NCBI GenBank assembly: GCA_036172245.1
Contig: JAYWIR010000002.1
Coordinates: 1,116,001 to 1,180,000, forward strand
Direction of reading: 5' to 3'
Source: Raillietiella orientalis
Lineage: Eukaryota
DNA length: 64,000 bases
The notes beneath the pieces were generated by a model. That model was not told where the DNA came from. It did not search any database and was given only the letters and a program-made list of their open reading frames with translations. The translations under genes were made by a program, and so were the position numbers. Shown here one piece after another: positions 35,999-64,000 of this stretch. Within the stretch, counting starts at the first letter, position 1; every line of letters begins with the position of its first letter.

Positions 35999-36035
35999 CA
36001 CCATCGATCCTCAGTTCACCTGAGGATCGATGGTG
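35999..36035. repeat. Perfect 16-bp stem hairpin with 5-nt loop
   Basis: CACCATCGATCCTCAG-TTCAC-CTGAGGATCGATGGTG. Confidence 0.95.
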
Positions 36036-39260: not shown

Positions 39261-39265
39261 CGATA

Positions 39266-39356
39266 TCCTTCGAGCCGGATTCGAACCAGCGACCTATGGA
39301 TGCCTGCTTTCGTTTGCAACTACAGTCCACCGCTCTACCAACTGAGCTATCGAAGG
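39266..39356 (-). tRNA. trnY-GUA: tRNA-Tyr (GTA) with an 18-nt intron at 39302-39319
   Basis: Minus strand CCTTCGATAGCTCAGTTGGTAGAGCGGTGGACTGTAG-[TTGCAAACGAAAGCAGGC]-ATCCATAGGTCGCTGGTTCGAATCCGGCTCGAAGGA. Acceptor stem CCTTCGA/TCGAAGG, A and B boxes, GTA anticodon, intron after position 37, 73-nt mature length: a typical animal tRNA-Tyr. Confidence 0.98.
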
Positions 39357-39824
39357 AACGGAAGTCTCCTTCCTTGATTGCTTATATAAAAAATTGTTTT
39401 GAGATGCCGTCACTTTCCACCGCCCAACAGTGGGAAAAAATTGGCATTCTGCTTCGTACTTTTGCTTCCTGATACATTTGTGCATTTCTGTAAATTTCTA
39501 GAAACGCAGAGTTTGAAGATTTTCATAAAAGTTCACATAAAATAAGGTTATCGGCTCAATTAACGATGCGACGAGTAATCGCCCTTTAAAAATCATTAGT
39601 GGATGAAAAAACAGTATATGATAATACAGATTGAGCAAAAAATGTTCATCATTTTCTCTGACTTTCTTTTTATGTTTTCAGAATTTAAAATGGAGACAGA
39701 AGCCATAAATTTTGTTTTCCTAATGATAGCTACACTAAAATGTGGAGCTCATTAAGCACATTAGAAATAGTGTTCAAAACTCTCATGTATTGTAAAGATG
39801 ATGCCATTTAAAAAACACAGAGTT

Positions 39825-45494: not shown

Positions 45495-47683
45495 ATGGCA
45501 AATTTTCAGAAAAAAACTGAGGAAAATAGTGTTGAAGTTAGTAAATTCGTCTTATTTTGAATATATCACTCAGTAAATTAATTTATTTACTTTGTTTAAT
45601 TGCAAACTAGTATCTAACTTAAGTCACATGCATATATGTCATTTATGTAATCTATCACTGTCAATGTATTTGTTAGAGTTTGGCAGAAGTGTTCAGGTGT
45701 TTTATATGCATGGAGAAATTACGAGATGCTCACCTCTGCCCCCACTGTTCAAAGCTCTGCTGCTTTATTTGCATTCGTAGATGGCTAACAGAACAAAGGT
45801 CACAATGTCCTCACTGCAGAGCATCTCTTCATTTACATGATCTAGTAAATTGTCGCTGGGTTGAAGAGGTGACACAACAATTGGATACATTACAACAACA
45901 AGGAGGAGGACTCAGACAAGATGATTCCGAATATGATAGGTAGATAAACTTCAAATGTTTCAATCATAAAAATTTAAAGCTTTCAACATATTTAGGTGTG
46001 AACAGCATAAAGAAAAACTGAGTGTTTATTGCTGTATATGTCAGCAGTGCATTTGCCATCAGTGTGCCTTGTGGGGTGGCACTCATTCTGGTCATACATT
46101 TAAACCTTTAAACGATGTCTATGAACAACAGTTTGCACAAATAAGAGAACAATTGGCCTTATTACGGCGGAGGCTTGTGGAACTGATCAATCTTGTTCAA
46201 AACATGGTGAGTGCATAAAACTGATTGCAATTGTATGCCTTCCAAGGAACATAATGTAGAAACAGTCCGTGCAGCTCGTGATGAAAGAGTGCGGGAGATT
46301 CGCAATGCTGTTGAACTCATGATTGCTCGACTTGATGCACATTTGAAAACAAAGCTGCTAACATTAATTGGTCAAAAAAATTTATTGACTCAACATACAG
46401 AACAACTAGATACTTTGCTGCAAGATATGGAACATCTTCTCCATGCATGTTCCCGTGCCCAGTTGGTTGCTCGTAGTCCTAACTTGCTCCGTGCTATAGC
46501 AAAAGTACAGCGCACCCCCTTGGTTTCCATTGCAAAAGCACTAGTGCCAGCTGACTTTCAGAGGTATTTTATTTTATTATCATGGGTCATTATTAATAAT
46601 TATCAGCGAGATTGTACCTCCTTATGATGGAAGTACTTTTGTACTTAACAATTTCCGAGCACTGCAGCGCCGAGCTGACCCTGTCTACTCTCCTGCACTG
46701 CAAGTAGGAGGTCTTTCTTGGAGACTGAAAGTATATCCTGATGGAAATGGAGTAGTTCGAGGGCATTATTTATCTGTCTTTCTGGAATTGACAGTAGGCC
46801 TTCCAGAACCATCAAAGTATGAATATCGTATTGAACTGATACATCCCAGTGAAGCATTAACCAAAAATATCTCTCGTGAATTCGCCTCTGATTTTGAAGT
46901 GGGAGAATGTTGGGGCTATAATCGATTTTTTCGTCTAGATCTCTTAAGGCCTGAAGGCTACCTTAACAGTGATATGGACACCTTGGCACTGCGGTACAGA
47001 GTAAACTTGTTTGGTAGTAAATTGCGCTTTAGATTTCAGGTGCGAGCTCCAACTTTCTTCCAAAAATGCCGAGAACAGCAATGGTATATTAACAAATTAC
47101 TGGCAGTGCAAGGGATTCACACTTCACAATTACATGAGTTACATGAATGGCTGGCACGGGAGGATAGTACTTATCATAGATCTCCCCCCAAATCTCAAAG
47201 AACAAAGTGGTCATCTCAGATAGGTTTACTATCTCTTCCTTTGATAAATCAACAGAGTGGTAGTGGCAGTTCTAGTGAGCCAGAGGTATACGAGTATATG
47301 TCAGTTGGTCATATGCTTGGTAGGTTTCTGATTCAGATGAAGAACCAGATGGCAATGAAATATTGGGAGAAGGTGGTATTCCTTCTACTGAAGAGAATGA
47401 CGTTGATGATGAGACGATGACAACTGATAATGATGTGGAACAGTCTGTAGCTTATATGGATTCAGACTGCAGAAATTTGCAAGCAGATTTAGAGCCAGTT
47501 TCCAAGAATATGGTCTTTAAAAATCCTGTTGCCCCTGTGAATATTTTAGATAACCTCCAACTAAACATTGCACATCTTATGGTAGATGGCACTTCCAATA
47601 GGATTCCACGTGCTGGCTCACTTCCTGCATTGACAGATTTGCATCCAGCTGCTACTGCATGCAATCAACAATCTAATCATTGA
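45495..47683 (+). CDS. TRIM37: E3 ubiquitin ligase TRIM37 (RING, B-box, coiled coil, MATH), ~610 aa. Exons 45495-45536, 45677-45939, 45996-46206, 46247-46563, 46607-46993, 47033-47285, 47324-47683
   Basis: [52 protein letters not shown] (RING), [33 protein letters not shown] (B-box), [29 protein letters not shown]...[17 protein letters not shown] (MATH), ENDVDDETM. All introns GT-AG; exon sum 1833 nt keeps frame; AATAAA at 47730. Confidence 0.96.
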
Positions 47684-47768
47684 AAGGTGTTGTGTTCGAC
47701 AGATTTGCTACTGCAAAGATGCACGAGGCAATAAACTACTCATTGCTCTTATCATTTGAATGAATAAC

Positions 47769-48852
47769 TTACTGATCTACTGGCAAAACCATAGGAAATG
47801 ATCCACTGAAAGTGCATGTAGTCAGTAACTGAATAAGAATGGCTGCAGCAGCTGCACCCACATTGAGTGAATCAATGAGTGGATGCAAAGGTCGGCCAGG
47901 ATAAATACACAAAAACTGATGCACATGATGAAAGCACTCTGAAGATATACCCTTCTTTTCATTGCCTGCAAATTTGTCAGTGTGCATTCACCAACTGTAG
48001 CACAGACCTAAGATCACAACAGTGGGCCTGTCAACCACAGGGGGTTGTTGAGTACATTTTCTACCATTGGAGGAACTTTGAGTACCCCAAATCATCCAAC
48101 CAGAACTGTGTGCTTCCTCCAGAAAAGCCTTTGGCTGCACACTATATATTGGCCACATTTCCATGACGCCACTACTTCTCTTACTGACAACTGCACTTAA
48201 TCGGCATCTATAAAGATGTATCAATGTGTTTTAAAGTCAGTTATGTTCCTTACGTTCCTTTTTCTGTGACCAGCAATTTATCTACTCCTAGAAAATAGGC
48301 AGTACGTAAGATGGACCCCAAATTCATTGGATCATGCACACAGTCAAGGAGAAGCCACAAGCAAGGATCAGTAACTAGCTTTGTTGCACCACTCTTTAAA
48401 GGGATATAGGATAAGTAAGATACATCCATACACAGTCCTTGATTAACATTGAAATTAGATAAATAGTCCAATGTATGGCGTGCCACCCACTGTACAGGGA
48501 TACCAGCCTGCTGGCACTGATCCAATAACTTAACATTGTCCTTATATGCACATGAGCTGACTTGGGACATGCAAGCATACAATTTATAGAAAGTACGTCT
48601 ACGTTCATTTAATGCAATACTGATTGGATGTCTCCCATAGATTAATTCACCACAAAGTGACTTCCTTATAAGATGAAACTCGTGTGACTTTTTAGTATTA
48701 GTAGAATGTTTCCCAAGCTTGCCAGAAATGCTTGCTATCATACTTGATTTTGTTTTCAATATTCTTCCATTATTAAAAGTACTAAAAGATATTTGGCAAC
48801 CTGTTGGGCCCAATGCAAAATGGCAGCACTTATTACAAGCCACAAGCAGCAT
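47769..48852 (-). CDS. MRM1: SpoU/TrmH-family (SPOUT) rRNA 2'-O-methyltransferase, mitochondrial MRM1-like, ~331 aa. Exons 48852-48254, 48207-48008, 47965-47769
   Basis: ELIYGRHPISIAL, NQGLCMDV, LLLDCVHDPMNLGSILRTAYFLGVD (motif 1), VVILG|NEKKGIS (motif 2), DSLNVGAAAAAIL (motif 3). Exon sum 996 nt in frame; GT-AG introns of 46 and 42 nt. Confidence 0.9.
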
Positions 48853-49189
48853 TTCTAGAAAATGTTGCTACAATGGACAATCATAGAGGGAAACTAAAAA
48901 ATTGATGGTGGTATGCAGGAGTTTACCTCCTCCCACCACCAAGCTATTTTCTTCTTAACCAAGCCCCTCTGCACTGAAATGGTTAGGCAAATCAGACTAC
49001 AAGAAAACCAGGTAGTCAAGCATCTCTGGATGGCACAGTGCACATACACATACATAAATGTCAATGCCCAAAGCAATGATGCTCATAAGTAAGTTTTATT
49101 GCACTTTGCTTGAACCACAAGTGGACTATGTCTTGGAGATTCTGGCAAACACAATCACTTGAGAAACACTTGTTTAGTTCCACACTGGC

Positions 49190-50215
49190 TCAACTATTGA
49201 TCAAGTGTGTTGGCATTGAACATCCTAATACACTACTGTCAGGGCTATGACGTTTCTTTTTTTTTTTTTCTTTCTTTTTTTTCTTCCGATCATCATCATG
49301 ACGGCGCTGTTTTTTGTGTTTTTTCTCATGCAAATCAATAGCACAAGGATCAGCACTATCAGGAATTGGAGTCTCTCGGTTTCGATGCCTTTTGTGCTTA
49401 TGATGACGTCTACGTATGGATAACTGACTCATGAATTTATATTGATCAGGAAGCTATTAAGTTACACTGAGTGAATTCAACATGTAAGCACTGGATACAT
49501 ACAGGTCCTGGATGCAATCGAAATCCGGCAAGTTGTGCTGTTGATAGAGGTAACAGTTCCTTTCCACCTATTGGTGGTTTTTCTATAAGGGATCGCAATG
49601 AACTAAAAGACAAATCATTTTCACGTAACCCTTTCATTTTACCTGTTGTCAACATGACCAGGTGTGTCCAATATGCCTGGTAAGTTAGGCAGGAAGGAAG
49701 AAAGGGAATCCTTCATTTTTTTTCCACTGCATTTATTGTATGCATGTTCAAGATTATAACATGCCATTAAATTTGAACTCCCAGTCAGATCACTTGGAGC
49801 TAAAATTTACTTATATGCTAAAATTTATTTATACACTATGACTAATGAGATTATCATTCACATACTAGCACTTGACATATAACCTAAACTCGACAAACGT
49901 CTGCACTTTCAAATGCATATAATGTATATGAATTTGTAATTTTATAAATAAATTTAGCGAAAAACAAAACATTTCTAACACACTGTGTTTTTCAGTGTGC
50001 CATGTTTCAACTTTTATTCTCACAAATTTCCTACCTGGAAGTTCTTTCATTAGATAGAATGGTCCAGTGTGTAAAATGGTTGGAGTTTTGCCTAAACATA
50101 TTGTAGCTTTTAATGTGCCTGTGGAATCTTGTTTATGAATTGCAGGAGATCGGGATCCTCTGGGTGATGATTTTGGTGAACACTGATCGATCATGTTTTC
50201 ACTGTTCAATTGCAT
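49190..50215 (-). CDS. MED19: Mediator subunit 19, ~233 aa (or ~226 aa from the ATG at 50194). Exons 50215-50035, 49799-49643, 49602-49503, 49453-49190
   Basis: SPKSSPR...QDSTGTLKATICLGK...GPFYLMKE, LTGSSNLMACYNLEHAYNK, LSSFLPNLPG, SLRSLIEKPPIGGKELLPL...LAGFRLHPGP|LPDQY and a Lys/His-rich tail. Exon sum 702 nt in frame; minus-strand AATAAA at 49100-49095. Confidence 0.95.
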
Positions 50216-53200
50216 TGCATTAGTTTATTCAAAATGTTACATTATTAATCAACACATTATGCGCAAGTTCCACATGCAATGGATGAAAACTCAGCATACA
50301 GCATACGCTGCACGTTCCATAATCACTACTGTGAATTTCACCAGGAAAAGCACGTTTGAAAAAGCAGGAAGTTACGAAAATTATAACCAAACGTGTGGGC
50401 AAAGAACTTCTGATAACAGCCTGATGCAAGCTTCTGCGACAGGCTTGCAAGGCACAAGAATGACGAGGTGGCGAGTCTAGCTAGGTAGCCGTGTCTCCTT
50501 CGACACTATTCACATAACGAAAGCACGTTCAACATCGAAACAGCAGCCACCCTTCAGCTGCTCGCAAATACGTTTACTACTCGCTCTCCTCCTGGCTCTA
50601 GGTACACACACACACACACTGCGTGTGTGATCCGTGACAGCGCGTGCGGCACATTCCGTGCACATAATTGTGATCGTCTTTTGAATGACGACAGATTGTG
50701 AATGTCTTTCAAACATATTATTGTCTCATTTACTGGGTAAGGGTTTCCCTGGATCTCGAATGCATGCAGTGGTCTTGAGGTCTGCATTGTTTGACATGAT
50801 TTTAAATTCGTGGAAACTCGGATACTTGAAGGATATCAGTATTCTAGATCATAGTATTTAGCTCAAGCCTTATTTATTTATTTATTTTTTCAGGAAGGCG
50901 TGTGATCTTAAACGTTCATCGACTATCCATGCCATATTGTTAACTATAATATGACGAACCTGCAAAAGCTAAAGCAAAATGTCCATGCTTTTGTGGTATC
51001 TTACAAATCGCTTTGTTTTTCATTCGTCCATCGACGAAACCATGGAACTTTCCTTACCTACTTTAACTACATTAAAAGTAAATGAGACATCCAACTTTCG
51101 GCATGAAAATTTTAATTCAACTGACACTTACTTATCTTAGAAGTTGGAACTACGATTATATGTACTCGGTGGAACATTAATCAAGGACATTGTTTGTGGT
51201 GCTTTCTTTTTAATGGAAACATCAGAATTCATTTTTTTTTTTTTTTTTCATATGTGAATCCCAAACTAAAAAAAACTTTTGTTATATTTACAATGAATAT
51301 ATACTTGCAGTACTAGACAAGTTCGGAAGAGAGAGTTTCACAAAACAACATTCATTAAACATTATTTCTGGTGGATCAAGACTCCATGAAGATAAAAAGA
51401 CAAAGAGAAAATGGAAACTTTTAGCAACCATTCGGATTTCACATTCTGTCTAAGAAAGCTTGAATGAATGGATTATCTTGACCTTAGAGGGAGTAGAGTT
51501 AACGCCTGAATGGACTTTAGAATGCCAAAGCCGCACCAGAAGACTTCAAAAAATTATACTACAAGGCGATTCTTATAAGCCACAAATTTGGTGAACAAAA
51601 CGAAATTTATGGCGATGCTTCAGAAAGGAAAAATATCTGAATATATTCTCAGGATGGCTTCAGTTTAAGTAGGTCTCCAAAATATTCAACTTCTTCCTTA
51701 CATGTTGAAAAATATTAAATTGTGAAGTACCACAACTATTTTTCGATATTTTCATTCGCAAAAATGGCCATCTAAGTAAATCCAAGATTATCATGTTTAG
51801 TTACATTTGAGAGTTTGAAAGCACATTCGCCGTTTACAGTGATTACTCAGTTCATAAATCAGAATTTTATATGCCCTACAGTCGTATGGAGCAGAACTTG
51901 AACAGTACATAAACGGCAGAAATCTTCTCAAAGCATTTTCGAAACACCTCATGTTATCAAATACTTCATAGCAAGGATGTGGATCACGAGAAGAAAAATA
52001 TGCATTTACAATCGGCACATAAATCCTCTGTTGGTCAGTAATATGAACTTTTGAATAAGTCAATGTAATGCAGTTCCACAACGATTAGAGGGAGTATAAA
52101 AGTTACTTGTAGGATGTGAATGATATCAAAATGTTTGATAAAATAAAGAATCTGAGATATGACTGAAGAACTCAGAAATGAAGCCTTAAAAACCCTATAT
52201 AAAAAACTTTCGCCTTCTTCATACTCTTAATGATTGGGATCTTCTGAGAGACACTTCAATTTAAATTAAGTATTTTTCTTACTTTTTAGACACAGCACGA
52301 GTCTACAACTCTTCTGATCTCGTCCCTACCTTAAATCAAGTAAGCAAAAAAATAGCAAATAATAGCAACCAAAAATTAACCATGAACCAAGTAGTAAAAC
52401 ACGAAAAAATAAATTGGGAAAAGTTGCTGTAAATTCAGAGGAAAGTATGCAAAAGTATTAGACATAATTTGCTGCTTTTCACAAAAAAAATTAAATGAAA
52501 TGGATTTACATAACGATCAGTAATATAATGAACAAATCAAAATAAAGAGAGAAAGGGAAGCCGAATTCGAAAGTTTCTTTAAATGATACAATTTTATGAA
52601 CAAATAATATCTTCACGAAATAGGTTATACGATTCGTGAAGAAAATATTGATGTCTGATTATAGATTTGTTCGTAAAGGAGAAATCAACAACGATTTTCC
52701 ATTTGTGAAATAAAAAGAAATGTGAGAATTTTAATATTTAATGGCTCAGAGAAACCATTCCTTCCTTTGATTATTCATCAAAATTTAATATCAAAACAAA
52801 TGGCTTCTGAAAATTCTTGTGACGAAAGTACATCTAGCCTACCATGATGAATGCAATTTCAAGTAATAGAGTTTGGTCTGATCTCTCAGTTCATCTCGAG
52901 TGATTAGATGCTGTTCGAAGCAAGTGAAAAGCATCAAAGAATATGCAGATTATTTGCAAATGTAAGGGATTCTTGAGATTTAATAAGAAAAGGAAAATTT
53001 CTGGATTATTTGCAAAAAAAAAATCACAAACTTACAACAAACTCAAGTATAGCTGAATGTTGAAATTATATTTAATGCACGTATCATCAAGGTATAATAG
53101 AAGCAATTATTTAAAAAAAATAAGTTTTGATTTCATTGAGTTCTTTACACTAAAAATTAACCTATACAAAAAATAACATATTTTATATTATCTTTTATTG

Positions 53201-53654
53201 TTAGCATGCCTTAATTTTGATGATCAGGTGAAGTTAACGCTCATAGCAGACCGAATGTGTTGATGCTAGCATATAAAGGAATACCTTTCTAAAGTAAAAA
53301 TTATTGTGTATTTTTCGTTCCTTTGCATAAAATTAAACATCACATTAATCTGTGCAGTTTTAATTACTTATGTTACAGTTTTCTGCCATTATTTGGAGGG
53401 AACTGAGAGTTCTGAAAAACCGTAGCACGTACAAAAGTACGTTTTGGGATGAAAAGTTGGTAAATTTCGTTTTCCGATATTTATCGCAACTTTGTACCAA
53501 CAGCTTATAAAGATTACAGTGTACCTTATTAGAGTTTTGGTGTTTGTTGCCTATAACAAATGTCATAGTCAACAAATTTGTTGCAAAGTTGTTGTTGCCT
53601 TTGTAACTTTTCCATTAAGTTCGAACCTCGTTTTTGAGCGCTATCAATGTGTAG

Positions 53655-54304
53655 ATGGAGCGTTTGATTGTCATATTACTGGTGAGCAGATTTGGTGTGA
53701 GAGTATCGAATGCAACCGACTTTATCGATTGAAATACATGATACGGATTTTGTTTTCAAGTTAGGTACAACAGTATCTTTTCTGACGTGTTTTCGCCAGA
53801 GTCTGTTGACGATGTCGTCTTCATCCATGCATTCAGTGGTTATGGTCACTGCTCCAACTATTGAGACAGGCAAAATGATCGCCAGGTACGTGAAAAAAGC
53901 GCGTCCATTTATTGATGAATAGGGGGTTGGTGGAAAGCAAATTGGCGGCTTGCATAAATCTGGTGCCAACTGTGACATCCATGTACGTAAAGTGTATGAA
54001 AAAAACATTTACATTAGATATTTCAGATATCGGTGGAAAGGTGAAATAAATGAGGACAATGAAGTTCTGATGGTATGAATTTGTGCAAATACTATGTTTT
54101 GAGTATGTTTTAGATAATTAAAACTCGTACTTCTTCTGTGCCAGAGCTTACCACGTTTGTAAAGGAAAAACACCCTTATGATGTAGTTGAAGTAATTGCT
54201 ACACCAGTAAGCATCCAACTAATGCATGCTCTAATTAATTGCTGACTCAGATTACTGATGGAAATGCAGATTATTTGAAATGGGTGGATGCAGAAACCAA
54301 CTGA
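53655..54304 (+). CDS. CUTA: CutA homolog, ~134 aa with hydrophobic N-terminus. Exons 53655-53681, 53761-53885, 53923-53982, 54027-54072, 54114-54206, 54251-54304 (short form could start at ATG 53812)
   Basis: HSVVMVTAPTIETGKMIAR|GLVESKLAACINLVPTVTSI|YRWKGEINEDNEVLM|IIKTRTSSVPELTTFVKEKHPYDVVEVIATP|ITDGNADYLKWV is the classic CutA signature. The first exon (MERLIVILL, GTGAGC donor) is less certain than the core. Confidence 0.93.
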
Positions 54305-54349
54305 TAATTTTATTCAATTGAATACATGAAATAATCATCACAATTTTTC

Positions 54350-56132
54350 TCAAGGTCGTAAATAGAAATTTCCTGCTTGGGTCACATAACGCACACCTTT
54401 AAAAGGTTTGTACCTCTCTCCATACACATCAAGACGATGAACTTTGAGTCCAGATACGGCAAGTTGATTGATGGTAAAATGCACCTAAGAGCAGTTCACT
54501 GTGATTCTTCCTAATATTTAACTTACACGAATACACGGATTTCCATCCAGATTAGAAGCACCAGTTTGTAAGATGATCTATGACAAATAAGCTGAAAAAT
54601 TTCCACATAATCCTTACCAAGCCATGAAGATTAGGGCTGCGACCCAAATCCATTTTGCCAACTTCCCATGTAAGCACATGCGCTGTAGGATCAAAGACAG
54701 ATCGTCCCTGAGTTGATGTTAGAGAACAGCTGAGCACACTTGGTGGATAGCTCATAATGATTTTGACTCCTTCAAGCTAACAGATGGCCATGATTAAAGC
54801 CTACAGCATTCTTACTGCTCGTCCCATTGTTTGCTTGGGTGCTACAGTCAGATCTAGCTTTCCCTCTCCATTATGGAATGTGAGTGAATGGCGCACATAC
54901 AATGGAATGGCCACAGTAGCTTTACTTCCAATGTGGTAATTTAAAAGACGAAAATTTCCATCTGGTGGTACAAAAGATAGTACGCGTTCTGCTGTCCATC
55001 GCCTGAGTCGTACACAAGTATGCAAAGCAACATCATCCATTAACTGGGGATTGATAAATGTCATGAGAAGATCTGGCATGCCACTTAGTTTGACACAGCA
55101 GTCAATCTAGCAGAGACATTAAATGCAAGCTTTGACATTATGTTCAGTCTCTTTACATGGCCAAAAATATCTGAAGACACTGTAGTACCAGTACGATCTA
55201 ATATAGCATCTATTTCTTCTACTACATCAAAATAGGCTTCATTATTTGTGTAGCGCACACCTGCTTTTCTCCAAGGAACATTTGATAATTGTCCTGTGGG
55301 CAGTGTTGTGCTTACACTATACTCACAAATCAAATAATCCAATCGAAAAAACTCACTTGGATTTTCCTGTAACTGTATTTGCAATAGTCCGTAGAAAAGT
55401 AGGTGGCTTAATGAGTTCTTGGAGAACATTAGATTGGGTAGCCAATGGAAATCCTGTATCTAACATCTCATGAAGTAACTGTTTAAACAATATTAATCAG
55501 AAATGCTTTCTGATACTAACCTCATAAACAACTACTAAGTTCTCCCTAATTGTTGATTCACTGCATTCTCCAAAGTATTCTTGGAATGTATGGGCAATCA
55601 AATGAAGAAATTCAATTACAAATAATGGAGGAACTTACAGAAGATTCCAAAAATGTGATAACCAAACTTATGTTGACTATACCTTCTTGGAGTATAACTG
55701 CTACGAAATATACACCATTTTCCAAGACATTTATTAAATAATGATGAGGAGTGCTGATTATAACAGGGACATTTTTTAAATTATTAGCTTTCTTTTGTTC
55801 CTCCAAAAAATCATCACAGGCCGACTTCGGTATGATACTTTTCCAATGCTTCTCAAGAAAAATTTCCCTTCAAAAAGATTCAACTCAATTCCAACTGTAA
55901 TAAATGTGTGGTGTTTCTGTATCAAAATTGTAAAGAATTTGACACATTAATATCGAATTTATGAATAGCATTCATAAGTTCGATACAACAGCACTCGTTT
56001 TAGTGTCACTGCAACAGATCAAGGGCAATGACATGCAATCCAAAATTCCAAAGCTTTGCAATCATGACTCATAACTCTAAAACCATACATAACTTACCCA
56101 TAAGAATTAATGAAAAACAAACTATCAATCAT
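54350..56132 (-). CDS. AP3M1: AP-3 adaptor complex medium (mu3) subunit, ~416 aa. Exons 56132-56098, 55867-55683, 55633-55521, 55478-55357, 55316-55157, 55106-54816, 54776-54618, 54577-54527, 54484-54350
   Basis: MIDSLFFINSYG|EIFLEKHWKS, VPPLFVIEFLH, EMLDTGFPLAT...ELIKPP, TLPTGQLSNVPWRKAGVRYTNNEAYFDVVEEIDAI, LSGMPDL, LSFVPPDGNFRL, SGLKVHRLDVYGERYKPFKGVRYVTQAG. Exon sum 1251 nt in frame; eight GT-AG introns. Confidence 0.97.
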
Positions 56133-60220: not shown

Positions 60221-61989
60221 TTAATAAGAGGAGTAACTTTCATTAATTGCTTTGTTACTGCTTTTAAATTGGTATTTTTCTTTTGACAGCATTGGAGTTT
60301 GTTAATCATTTAAGTGTAATTTATTTTATTTGTCTTTATTCACATGCACAATCTGTTACATTCCGTCCATTTTTCATGTTTTATTCTTCTTCTTCAAAAC
60401 TTATCTTAGAATTTCATTTCAAGGAAAAAAATGCAACAACAAAGTGGTTTTTCATTGAACTTTGACATGAGTTTGCTCATATCAGTTTCTCTTATCATTA
60501 AGAAAGCAAGTTTTTGCCTGTAGAGGAATGATTCTGTGACTGAAGTGGTGGATAGCTAAGAAAACTTTTATATGCACTTAAGTGGACCTAAAGTTAATAT
60601 ATGCATAAAAGGTGCTCTGATGTTGATTTTGAAGTTCCTAGCAGATGTTTTGGTATCTCTTGAACTTACTCCAAAATCTGCAAGGATGAGAGCTTTGTGG
60701 ACCCATCTTGTGGTGACTGATGCAGGAAGCAGATGTTTGAAATACAGCTTGGTTTATTAATTTCGGCCATTTTATTCTGCAGGAGGATTGGATCCTTTTG
60801 ATGAGCTGATTTGTTTAGTTTTATGGATTTACAGCCTATGAGACAGGATGCACCTGACTCATAGTGAAGTCAAACTCTCCAAAATACTTTGATTCTTCAT
60901 CATTTTAAAAGTAGCATTTTTTCTAGAGCATACATTCATTTATTACTTAAATTAAAGCAAGAGGTATTATGAATTTTCGCATTAAGCAAACTCATTGCTC
61001 TCATTTCTTCTAAAAATTTAATGTTATCAGAACATTAAAACATTTGCTATATAAAAAACACTACATATAAGTTGCAGTATTGCCGTATTGAGATTTTTTT
61101 GATGACCCATGTTGTTACAATTGAAAATTCTGGAAGTTCCATATTTGAGGATTGATGGCTCAAACGTTCATCAAAGTGTTCGTGAATGTTTTGAAGACAT
61201 CATCGACTTTTATATTTTTAGTGTCTCTGACAAAAAAAAAAGTATCGGATAGCAAAGGAAATACGCTTTCTTCAGAATTGAAGGATTTTGGTTTCCCTTT
61301 TTTTTTTTGAGCCATGAATCCAATAGGGAGGATCATGTTACGATGTAGCAGATTTGCAACATGGTAGGAATCGGGAAGTGAAACGGTAAATGCATGCAAC
61401 GTTAGATATCATAGATAGTACTGCATAGCCAAAAAAATCACGGAAACTGCGAATGGTCTATCATCCGAGAGATAATAAAATAATAGGATGCTTATTCAAA
61501 TGTCACTCATGTAAAAGGAAATTTTAATAATAAACTAAAGAAAAATGACAGAAGAAGAAAGGTTGGAGAGGTTATTTATTCGGAAAAATACTTACCCACC
61601 CCCGCGGAGGTCCGTTTTGTGTGTGCCTTCGCTTCCTTGCAAGAGTCGCTGAAGCTGGCCAGCCAACCTCGTCCTCAGGAACATCGCGACCACCCTCTCA
61701 TCGAGCGAACGACGATCGTCCCGGGAGCCACCCTTCCTCCCGAGGACTCTCCCGGATGCAGGACCGTATCGCCCTTTCCTCCCCGCCCGAAATTCCGAGT
61801 TGCACTTGGCGTGCCAAGTGGAGGGGTGTGAGAAGTCACTACCCTTGCCTGCCCAACCTTGGAATCTTCCGTTTGCGACCCCCCTGCATCGCAGGCCGTT
61901 CGGTGGCCCCTGTGAACAGACAGATTTGCGCTCCCATTGACTCCTCTATTTGATGTTACTGAAATTTTTATATAAATAAACTATTTAGT

Positions 61990-62402
61990 TTATTGAACTA
62001 TTGCATATAGTAATTTAACAGGTTTTGATAAAATCTGGAAGGTTTTTTCAGCCCATTCATAAAGCGGTTCACCTCTATGACCATTGGCATATAATGTCAT
62101 AACTACTTCACCAGCTTCAACTTTTCCACCATTTTTTCTATTTGGATAAATTCCTATCATCTGACCAATTGCCTCCCTCTTCTTTTGTATTTCTGTTAGC
62201 AAATAAACGAACTGCTAACAATCCAAATTCATTAGTTCATTAGTATTTAATAGTTGTATTTAGACATTACGTGTTGTTTTAGCTTGAAGTTTTCAGTTCT
62301 CTTTTTGGTATTCAACATGAAATCAAGATTATCCATAGGATCTATCAAAGATAAATCTCCATCCTGTTCTTTGAGAAAGTGCATTAAATATTCTAGTGCT
62401 CT
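61990..62402 (-). pseudogene. Frameshifted C-terminal fragment of a bacterial-type pyrimidine-nucleoside/thymidine phosphorylase (pdp/deoA-like)
   Basis: Successive frames give RALEYLMHFLKEQDGDLSLID, AKTTRNV, TNEFGLLAVRLFANRNTKEE and EAIGQMIGIYPNRKNGGKVEAGEVVMTLYAN...ILSKPVKLLYAIVQ*. These are collinear with the remembered Pdp consensus GKALEKFKxFxxxQGGDxSxID / AKxSGYV / IGxxAMxLGAGRxTKED / IDxxVGIxLNKKxGDKVExGExLxTxYxN. AT-rich and intronless. Confidence 0.75.
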
Positions 62403-62409
62403 ATATATT

Positions 62410-64000
62410 TCTAATGCTGTGTGGCTCTGAGGACTTCTTTAGATGTTTTCAAAATGACCTAACAAATTGTCATCAAACAAATTGATCTTCCTGGCAATCA
62501 TTGTCTTATCAGGGTGCCAATTTTCTTCAATGGCTTGTGGAGCAAACGGAGAACAGTTCTTTGAGGTCAGAATTGAAAATGCATCCGTCGGCGTCCTCCT
62601 CTTCCAAAAAGGTTTCTTCTTCCACGTCTTTTTGTTGTTGATCGTGATGATGTTGAAGTCGTTCCGTGTCGAGTTCGGTATTGTGATCATCTATTAATTT
62701 CCTGTACATCCTCACCTGGAATCCCATATCTCTACCCAAACACACAATTCCATTTTCGACAGACTGTTCTTCAGAACTCTCTATTTCTCTGACTGAAATG
62801 CAATCTGGTCAGAGTTTTTTGCAAGCAAAAAATTCCATTGCTTCTATACCATAACGATGATCCTTAAGCGACGGAGGATGCTGTAATGCTCCTTTCGAAA
62901 TTCCTTAAAAGTGAGTTCTGTGTCACTGGTTATTTTCAGAGCATTTTTGAAACATGGCCTTTGTGTACAGGTTTTTCAAGTATGAAATGGCTTGCTGGTC
63001 CATGAGCTGAACGAGAGAAGTGGTATTGGCCAGCAACAACTTCATCTTGATCAAACTAGATTCATCCATTGAATGTTGTTCTAAAATTGGAGGATGAGCA
63101 GGAGCGTTGTCCCTCAGTCGAAGAACTTTTAAGAGTGGATTTCTTTCAGTGAGATGAAGCACTTTCTGCAGGAGGAAATTTTTCATGAATCCGCTCTGTG
63201 GAAAACTGTCGGTTAACTCACGCCTTCGGGTTGGCCGTCCACGTAACTTCCAAGCTGCTCTTTATTACACCTTCCTTTGAAACGTGCGTGGATTTTCAGA
63301 ATAGCGAACGAGCAAAGGCTTTATCTTGCAATCCCCACTAGCATTACCACAAAGAAATAAGGTGAACCGATCTTTCATCTAGGTTTCTGCCCCTGTGACG
63401 TCTTTTCTTCTTTTGTAATATACGTCCTCTTGGGCATTCCTTTCCAAATAAGACCTGCTTGATCACGATTCAAATCTTGTTGAGATGCAAGTCCTCCACT
63501 GTATAGAAACTGCTTAAATCCTCTTCCAAAATTGTTGGCTTTCTCTACGTGGGCACTCGCAGCTTCGCAACGCATCACAGCGCTGTTCATCGCAGTTCCT
63601 TTTTGGAATTGATCGAACCAGCCCGCACTTCCTTTAAACTCCTCATTTTCAGTACCGGTTTCAAGTGTGCGTTTCTTGAGTTCACTATGCAGATCCTTGG
63701 CTTCCTCACAACTGATTCTCTAGGTGATGATGTCACCAGCTATTCTCTTCTCATGTATCCACACCAGAAGGCGTTTCTTCATCTCTTCAATAACATGTGA
63801 TCTCCTGGAGGTCAACCGTGCCGCACCTTCATCCACATCCACTGCTCTTATTGCCTCCTTATTCTTGAGAATGTTTATCTTATCGTTGACTTTGGCATTT
63901 TCAACATCGCTAAACATTTGAAACAAACGTGTACCACTTTCTTGTTTTAAAGTGATTTCTTTTTTCACCCCAATTGCCGCTGCTGCAAACTTTCTTTGAC
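62410..64000 (-). mobile_element. Decayed Tigger/pogo-family (TIGD1-like) DNA transposon, truncated by the window edge
   Basis: HTH/CENP-B-like IEEMKKRLLVWIHEKRIAGD, NRDQAGLIWKGMPKRTYITKEEK (decayed NCDETGLFWK), DNAPAHP...NTTSLVQLMDQ (36 residues between the last two Asp), acidic tail and ENWHPDK...NLFDDNLLGHF. Several frameshifts and stops; no TIR identified. Confidence 0.93.

Follow-up and report, generated by a model that had tools for sequence, protein, structure and literature searches.

Nuclear inserts of Wolbachia DNA in arthropods and nematodes arise when symbiont DNA in the germ line is joined into chromosomes; they are mostly decaying pseudogenes and often lie near transposable elements. 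The present study concerns a stretch of 64,000 nucleotides of the Raillietiella orientalis assembly GCA_036172245.1 (contig JAYWIR010000002.1, positions 1,116,001 to 1,180,000 of the forward strand), here called the window, in which the minus strand from 62402 to 61990 is very probably a dead relic of the final 133 codons in a Spiroplasma-type pdp, the gene for pyrimidine-nucleoside phosphorylase (Pdp), lying inside animal nuclear DNA.

DNA of the same donor group has been described in other hosts. Cassettes resembling Spiroplasma ixodetis are found in the nuclear genome of the ticks Ixodes ricinus and I. inopinatus, where they lie inside arthropod contigs, are kilobases long and are 70–90% identical to living S. 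ixodetis (PMC11617991). In ants, 37 of 497 curated transfer loci were assigned to Spiroplasma/Mycoplasma donors; the word ‘phosphorylase’ does not occur in the main text of that paper (PMC13320244). A search of one literature library returned no earlier report of a pdp remnant. Spiroplasma sp. DGKH1, whose Pdp (locus L001) serves as the reference below, is reported to be closely related to Spiroplasma eriocheiris (PMC10756377).

Extent and structure of the relic

The relic comprises 410 bases (minus strand, 62402–61993) that correspond, in order, to residues 313–445 of Spiroplasma Pdp, the C-terminal third of the protein, and it ends at the native stop codon. It was delimited by a frameshift-aware dynamic programming (DP) alignment, for which 18 Pdp sequences of the Spiroplasma clade supplied the scoring matrix, with 60 shuffles of each block or stretch as controls. 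Four blocks in three frames were recovered, with three frameshifts and one in-frame stop. The 8-bp duplication was detected by Tandem Repeats Finder (TRF).

62292–62402, minus strand: block 1, residues 313–349 of Spiroplasma sp. DGKH1 Pdp, the end of the glycosyltransferase domain and the linker
62284–62291, minus strand: frameshift 1, 8 extra nt between blocks 1 and 2 (DP traceback step dj=11)
62233–62283, minus strand: block 2, residues ~350–366, with an in-frame TAA at 62262–62260 (DP alignment)
62228–62244: exact 8-bp tandem duplication (TRF: period 8, 2.1 copies, 100% matches)
62225–62232, minus strand: frameshift 2, 8 extra nt between blocks 2 and 3 (DP step dj=11)
62180–62224, minus strand: block 3, residues 367–381, the LGAGR region, here LFANR (three-frame translation)
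62176–62179, minus strand: frameshift 3, 4 extra nt between blocks 3 and 4 (DP step dj=7)
61993–62175, minus strand: block 4, residues 382–445, from the PYNP_C core to the native C-terminus, within an open 74-residue frame at 61990–62214
61990–61992, minus strand: stop codon TAA, coinciding with the native pdp stop

Blocks 1, 3 and 4 scored 59.9, 60.8 and 138.8, against shuffle maxima of 28.8, 17.9 and 31.0, respectively, and in each case none of the 60 shuffles was as high. Block 2 is marginal when taken alone (19.0, equalled by one of 60 shuffles) and is colinear with the other blocks. A tblastn comparison gave 17 identical residues out of 35 in block 1. The frame of block 3 reads TNEFGLLAVRLFANRNTKEE, against TNELGLLAVRLGAGRNTKNE in Spiroplasma, with 16 of 20 residues in common, and the final 21 nt of coding sequence together with the stop align with the ends of Spiroplasma pdp genes. 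Frameshift 2 is explained by the exact 8-bp tandem duplication that overlaps it.

The remnant is confined to residues 313–445, because the best alignment upstream of 62402 is no better than chance: 20.4 against a shuffle mean of 20.8 (equalled by 31 of 60 shuffles), and, in a second upstream window, 17.4 against a mean of 15.0 (11 of 60 as high). The N-terminal helical domain and the glycosyltransferase family 3 catalytic domain (residues 1–312) are absent from the relic, and no other pdp segment was found elsewhere in the window at E < 0.01. Two thirds of the protein are missing, among them all of the catalytic domain before residue 313, and the relic encodes no enzyme. It is a gene remnant and not a gene, as its reading frame is interrupted by three frameshifts and one TAA.

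Some further observations were made at the 5′ edge. A DP extension to 62496, through four more frameshifts, scored no better than shuffles and was dropped, as was a match seen by eye (SSEP) in another frame of the same stretch. A possible near-duplication, ALEIY/ALEYL, was not detected by TRF and is left unassigned. The alignments of the Pdp of two loci, L058 and L059, carry the block 1 match upstream to 62459.

The initial annotation of this DNA had described four minus-strand blocks, in order and separated by frameshifts, that end in a stop at 61990, and the frameshift-aware alignment recovers this arrangement; the motif that it quoted, GIYxNxKxGxKVEAGEVVMTLYAN, is present in the 74-residue open reading frame (ORF) at 61990–62214. 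Its account of the junction with the neighbouring transposase copy, described below, requires correction. The relic had been placed within ~10 bp of the transposase end, and the peptide RSPQSHTA had been counted as part of block 1. The last transposase frame stops at a TAA at 62441–62439, and Pdp similarity begins 36 nt further on, at 62402; the peptide belongs to the upstream stretch that scores like its own shuffles.

Homology and donor lineage

When the full-length Pdp of Spiroplasma sp. DGKH1 (read with code 4) was compared with the window, tblastn returned two segments at E 1e-18. The relic and this sequence have the same residue in 65 of 130 aligned codons and a nucleotide identity of 62%, while a DNA search gave 68% identity to the pdp of genome G001 across 62051–62236 of the window (186 nt, E 1.4e-8). 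The PYNP_C profile (PF07831) exceeded its cut-off of 27 bits on the 74-residue frame, with a score of 30.1 (E 3.8e-7, profile positions 23–62 of 75). The earlier assignment to the C-terminal part of Pdp is thereby upheld, and two further comparisons favour a Pdp-type over a TYMP-type sequence, as it had also proposed. Among PDB sequences at E<=10, the 11 distinct entries listed include five bacterial pyrimidine-nucleoside phosphorylases (5oln, 5ep8, 3h5q, 7m7k and 1brw) and no chain named thymidine phosphorylase. In NCBIfam, the Pdp models TIGR02644 (19.1 bits) and NF004747 (17.4 bits) outscored the thymidine phosphorylase model NF004490 (11.2 bits); all three scores fall far short of the full-length cut-offs, which is expected of a 74-residue piece. 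A word-indexed protein search with the same ORF, at longer lengths, gave seven candidates, none of which scored.

A HMMER search of 1.84 billion representative proteins with the 74-residue frame yielded five sequences at E<=0.001. Four of these (P0001 and P0003–P0005) are long repeat proteins of bacterial appearance, rich in GH-YGEPTYEWAEDNS units, whose matches to residues 38–66 of the relic frame have E values from 2e-7 to 2e-4. These matches look like a chance resemblance multiplied by repetition, and are a caution for searches with short queries. The fifth, P0002 (84 residues, a single-member cluster), is 45% identical to the relic frame over 66 residues; it is encoded on the chromosome of a Spiroplasma endosymbiont and is the sole real homologue among the five.

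A pattern scan of one genome per prokaryote species was also performed, with peptides taken from the relic and from P0002, so that it is biased towards both. It produced 46 pattern matches and five confirmed relatives:

Spiroplasma sp. DGKH1, 50% identity
Spiroplasma endosymbiont of Polydrusus pterygomalis, 44% identity
Mycoplasma yeatsii, 46% identity
Mesoplasma sp., 39% identity
Tetragenococcus halophilus, 34% identity

Less biased rankings were obtained with the relic frame itself as query. In an even sample of the bacterial class of G001, 75 of 399 scored genomes match at E<=0.01 (two more were unscored), the top three at 48.2, 42.9 and 42.1 bits and the next at 30.9. The sample of its family has 79 scored genomes, of which 57 match (three unscored); 19 genomes reach 35–51 bits with 39–54% identity, and all others remain at or below 33 bits. 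In block 3, Mycoplasma yeatsii and Tetragenococcus are much more divergent from the relic than the Spiroplasma clade is.

The position of the relic was then examined in a maximum-likelihood (ML) tree of 55 rows, consisting of 53 distinct Pdp sequences of at least 400 residues from the sampled loci, the 90-residue stump of L002, and the relic with X at its breaks; L023, L034 and L056, whose best ORFs are shorter, and duplicate sequences were omitted. The tree was calculated in IQ-TREE under LG+C20+F+G4 with posterior mean site frequencies (PMSF) and a careful search, and supports are given as ultrafast bootstrap/SH-like approximate likelihood ratio (UFBoot/SH-aLRT). The relic lies within a 19-row clade (98/92) and within a 20-row clade (100/99), both of which hold Spiroplasma sp. 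DGKH1 and the Polydrusus endosymbiont, and its end branch measures 0.9 changes per column. In an approximately unbiased (AU) test, a tree in which the relic is constrained to the other mollicute clade, which comprises Mesoplasma, M. yeatsii and 17 further rows, is worse by 14.8 log-likelihood (lnL) units and is rejected (p-AU 0.028). The exhaustive protein search, the ranked genome samples and the tree thus agree on the Spiroplasma-like donor that had first been offered as a guess.

Two of the sampled Spiroplasma genomes have damaged pdp genes of their own. On the chromosome of the Polydrusus pterygomalis endosymbiont (L002:4929-5198) the gene is reduced to residues 382–448, and in genome G431 (L056) it is frameshifted. 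pdp therefore appears to be dispensable in some symbiotic Spiroplasma.

Probable residence in the nuclear genome

The sequences that adjoin the relic are the following.

62439–64000, minus strand: remains of a pogo/Tigger-type transposase copy, broken by stops and spread over several frames, continuing past the window end
62403–62438, minus strand: 36-nt spacer that fits neither the Pdp nor the transposase frame
61595–61945, no strand assigned: CpG-rich block of 350 bp, GC 0.618 against 0.32–0.34 around it

The transposase copy is recognised by Pfam DDE_1, with 28.4 and 29.4 bits (cut-off 22) on the ORFs 62923–63261 and 63265–63378. On the other side, the relic stop is followed by ~45 AT-rich nt and then by the GC-rich block, which is not bacterial-like. 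Animal genes (TRIM37-like, Med19 and an adaptor mu subunit) lie 6–16 kb from the relic. The window as a whole is animal DNA, from a genome that is compact and has short introns. A comparison with 1807 ORFs from 66 bacterial loci gave no other credible match in the window outside the relic (three chance-level hits, E 0.004–0.008), and the relic therefore has no Spiroplasma gene as a neighbour.

The codon usage of the relic adds a further point. Its single tryptophan codon (YEW in block 4, 62094–62096) is TGG, whereas all 18 Spiroplasma-clade pdp sequences carry TGA at that position. A chance A>G substitution could have produced it, as could a variant in the donor or a period in which the host read the sequence. 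Taken together, the non-bacterial flanks, the low DNA identity to every sampled Spiroplasma and the TGG codon argue for nuclear residence.

The initial annotation had held that the decay of the sequence speaks against contamination by live bacterial DNA. This argument is weakened: decay alone is no proof of nuclear residence, because pdp is a stump or frameshifted inside two sampled Spiroplasma genomes, and the non-bacterial flanks are the better argument against contamination. Several other points weigh against the interpretation of the relic as nuclear Spiroplasma DNA. Continuity with the host chromosome is given by the assembly alone. Composition does not discriminate, as the relic has 31.7% GC, the local host DNA 32–34% and Spiroplasma pdp 33–36%. 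In the AU test, a topology that unites the 19 Spiroplasma-type rows to the exclusion of the relic is 4.6 lnL units worse and is not rejected (p 0.169), and the donor may have been a sister lineage of the Spiroplasma-type clade and not a member of it. The tree, moreover, spans one bacterial class and has no thymidine phosphorylase row of the E. coli or animal type.

The simplest account, which we consider very probable, is an old transfer of symbiont DNA to the host. It would have begun with DNA of a Spiroplasma in or on the germ line that was joined into a chromosome break, as in other transfers of this kind. Of pdp, only the 3′ third remains; either that piece alone was inserted, or the rest would have been cut away when the Tigger-type copy and the GC-rich block came to adjoin the relic. 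Neutral drift since then may account for the 8-bp tandem duplication, the 8-nt and 4-nt insertions, the one stop and the change from LGAGR to LFANR.

A variant of this history is that the relic is the stump of a full-length Spiroplasma pdp that formerly functioned as a gene of the host. It comes to mind because TGA to TGG is the change that a nuclear gene would need, and the 74-codon frame that holds block 4 is open to the native stop and lies just upstream of the CpG-rich block. In such a history the Tigger-type copy may have truncated the gene or carried it. The codon is a hint only, because chance could alter a single site (rough estimate 0.15–0.2). From the sequence features available, we judge this improbable.

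Alternative origins

The proximity of the transposase raises the possibility that a Tigger-type element carried the pdp fragment between its transposase and its 3′ terminal repeat, which is compatible with an origin from Spiroplasma and with nuclear residence. The fragment begins 36 nt past the stop of the transposase frame, on the same strand and in the same orientation, and the spacer is too small for the usual 3′ untranslated region plus terminal repeat. An element that had been mobilised with such cargo would have left other genomic copies bearing the same tail, but a self-comparison of 60500–64000 with the window showed no repeat and no second copy of the element or its tail. Nor was a terminal repeat recognised past the relic, where the AT-rich flank ends after ~45 nt in the GC-rich block, and an inverted repeat search found none of note. 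The element's own terminal repeat is out of view, as its 5′ end lies beyond 64000, outside the window. The search for intact relatives, which would show where the transposase normally ends, came back empty (a word-indexed search with the DDE_1 ORF, 126 candidates, none of which scored); a protein atlas search with the 83-residue transposase tail was uninformative (best scores 0.84–0.85). The initial annotation had named both capture by the transposon and insertion into it, and the part of the element inside the window fits either one; we consider capture unlikely.

An assembly artefact would be a different matter, namely a pseudogene piece from a co-sequenced Spiroplasma misjoined between two host sequences. 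Broken pdp genes do occur in Spiroplasma genomes, as described above. Such a misjoin is, however, hard to reconcile with a bacterial-like stretch of only ~450 bp that has non-bacterial sequence on both sides in one contig and no adjoining Spiroplasma gene, with a DNA identity of just 62–68% to any sampled Spiroplasma, or with TGG in place of the TGA of all 18 relatives, and we consider it very improbable. Still less credit, indeed almost none, can be given to an origin from the animal's own TYMP or from a non-mollicute bacterium. The composition of the tree, without TYMP or E. coli-type rows, and of the genome samples, drawn from one bacterial class, leaves some room for it. Four results speak against it: no such hit appeared at E<=0.001 among the 1.84 billion representatives, the NCBIfam thymidine phosphorylase model ranked below both Pdp models, the PDB listing held no chain of that name, and block 3 has its 16 of 20 residues in common with the Spiroplasma clade, from which M. 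yeatsii and Tetragenococcus are much more different.

Other features of the window

The CpG-rich block has no Rfam match (permissive scan of 61000–62100), no Pfam match and no copy elsewhere in the window. On its minus strand, an ATG-led frame runs from ~61700 into a GTAAGT-like donor near 61597. The block may represent a promoter island together with the opening exon of a host gene that follows immediately downstream of the relic. Two short resemblances in this flank were set aside as too short to count: AGAGGAG, like a ribosome-binding site, followed by ATG at 61936–61950, and a 9-nt likeness to the intergenic spacer that follows pdp in some Spiroplasma.

Two further features complete the annotation:

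45677–55869: compact gene cluster with a TRIM37-like gene (plus strand), an SpoU/MRM1-like methyltransferase (minus strand), Med19 (minus strand) and an adaptor-complex mu subunit (minus strand)
39265–39357, minus strand: tRNA-Tyr (GTA) with an intron of ~21 nt (Rfam, 61.1 bits)

The tRNA is the only result of the Rfam gathering scan of the window. The TRIM37-like gene has RING, B-box and MATH exons and introns of ~50 nt; 1516 proteins match it at E<=1e-10, with 55–82% identity across very distant animals and no close relative among them. Its best match, P0006 (‘unnamed protein product [Callosobruchus analis]’), scores 306 bits, ~40 above the next, with identities of 58–82% by exon; barnacle or spider proteins reach identities at least as high. 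The composition of the window switches sharply at 36000: positions 1–36000 have 44–66% GC, mostly above 50%, and long open frames in all six frames, while 36000–64000 have 30–44% GC and hold the recognisable genes.

Discussion

The relic is a well-preserved molecular fossil, which probably records that a Spiroplasma of the lineage including DGKH1 reached the germ line of an ancestor of the host. The infection could be dated if the orthologous site were compared across related species. As an example of how inserts decay and become embedded among transposons it is instructive, and it introduces no new gene or mechanism. It also carries a warning for annotation, as the PYNP_C match at this place is very probably not contamination to be masked, nor is it a functional, horizontally acquired enzyme.

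Compared with the living Pdp of Spiroplasma (DGKH1), the relic is colinear with residues 313–445, has the same residue in 50% of aligned codons, and keeps the stop position, the last codons and the clade-typical stretches in blocks 3 and 4. It differs in lacking residues 1–312, in its three frameshifts and one stop, in LFANR, in the TGG tryptophan codon and in its location in animal DNA.

The Ixodes cassettes (PMC11617991) resemble the locus in being Spiroplasma-derived DNA that is interrupted and flanked by host sequence, whereas the relic is only ~0.4 kb long, is 62–68% identical to the nearest sampled genome and groups with the DGKH1 clade. The ant transfers (PMC13320244) are events of the same type from the same donor group; the examples singled out in that work, MurNAc etherase being one, are conserved genes that are expressed, while the relic is a decayed fragment. 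Relative to both reports, the locus adds a further instance of a described class: it is very probably symbiont DNA that was inserted into the nuclear genome and has no function, a type of feature reported in ticks and ants. The nuclear Wolbachia inserts introduced at the outset come from another donor genus, and beside them the relic is very small.

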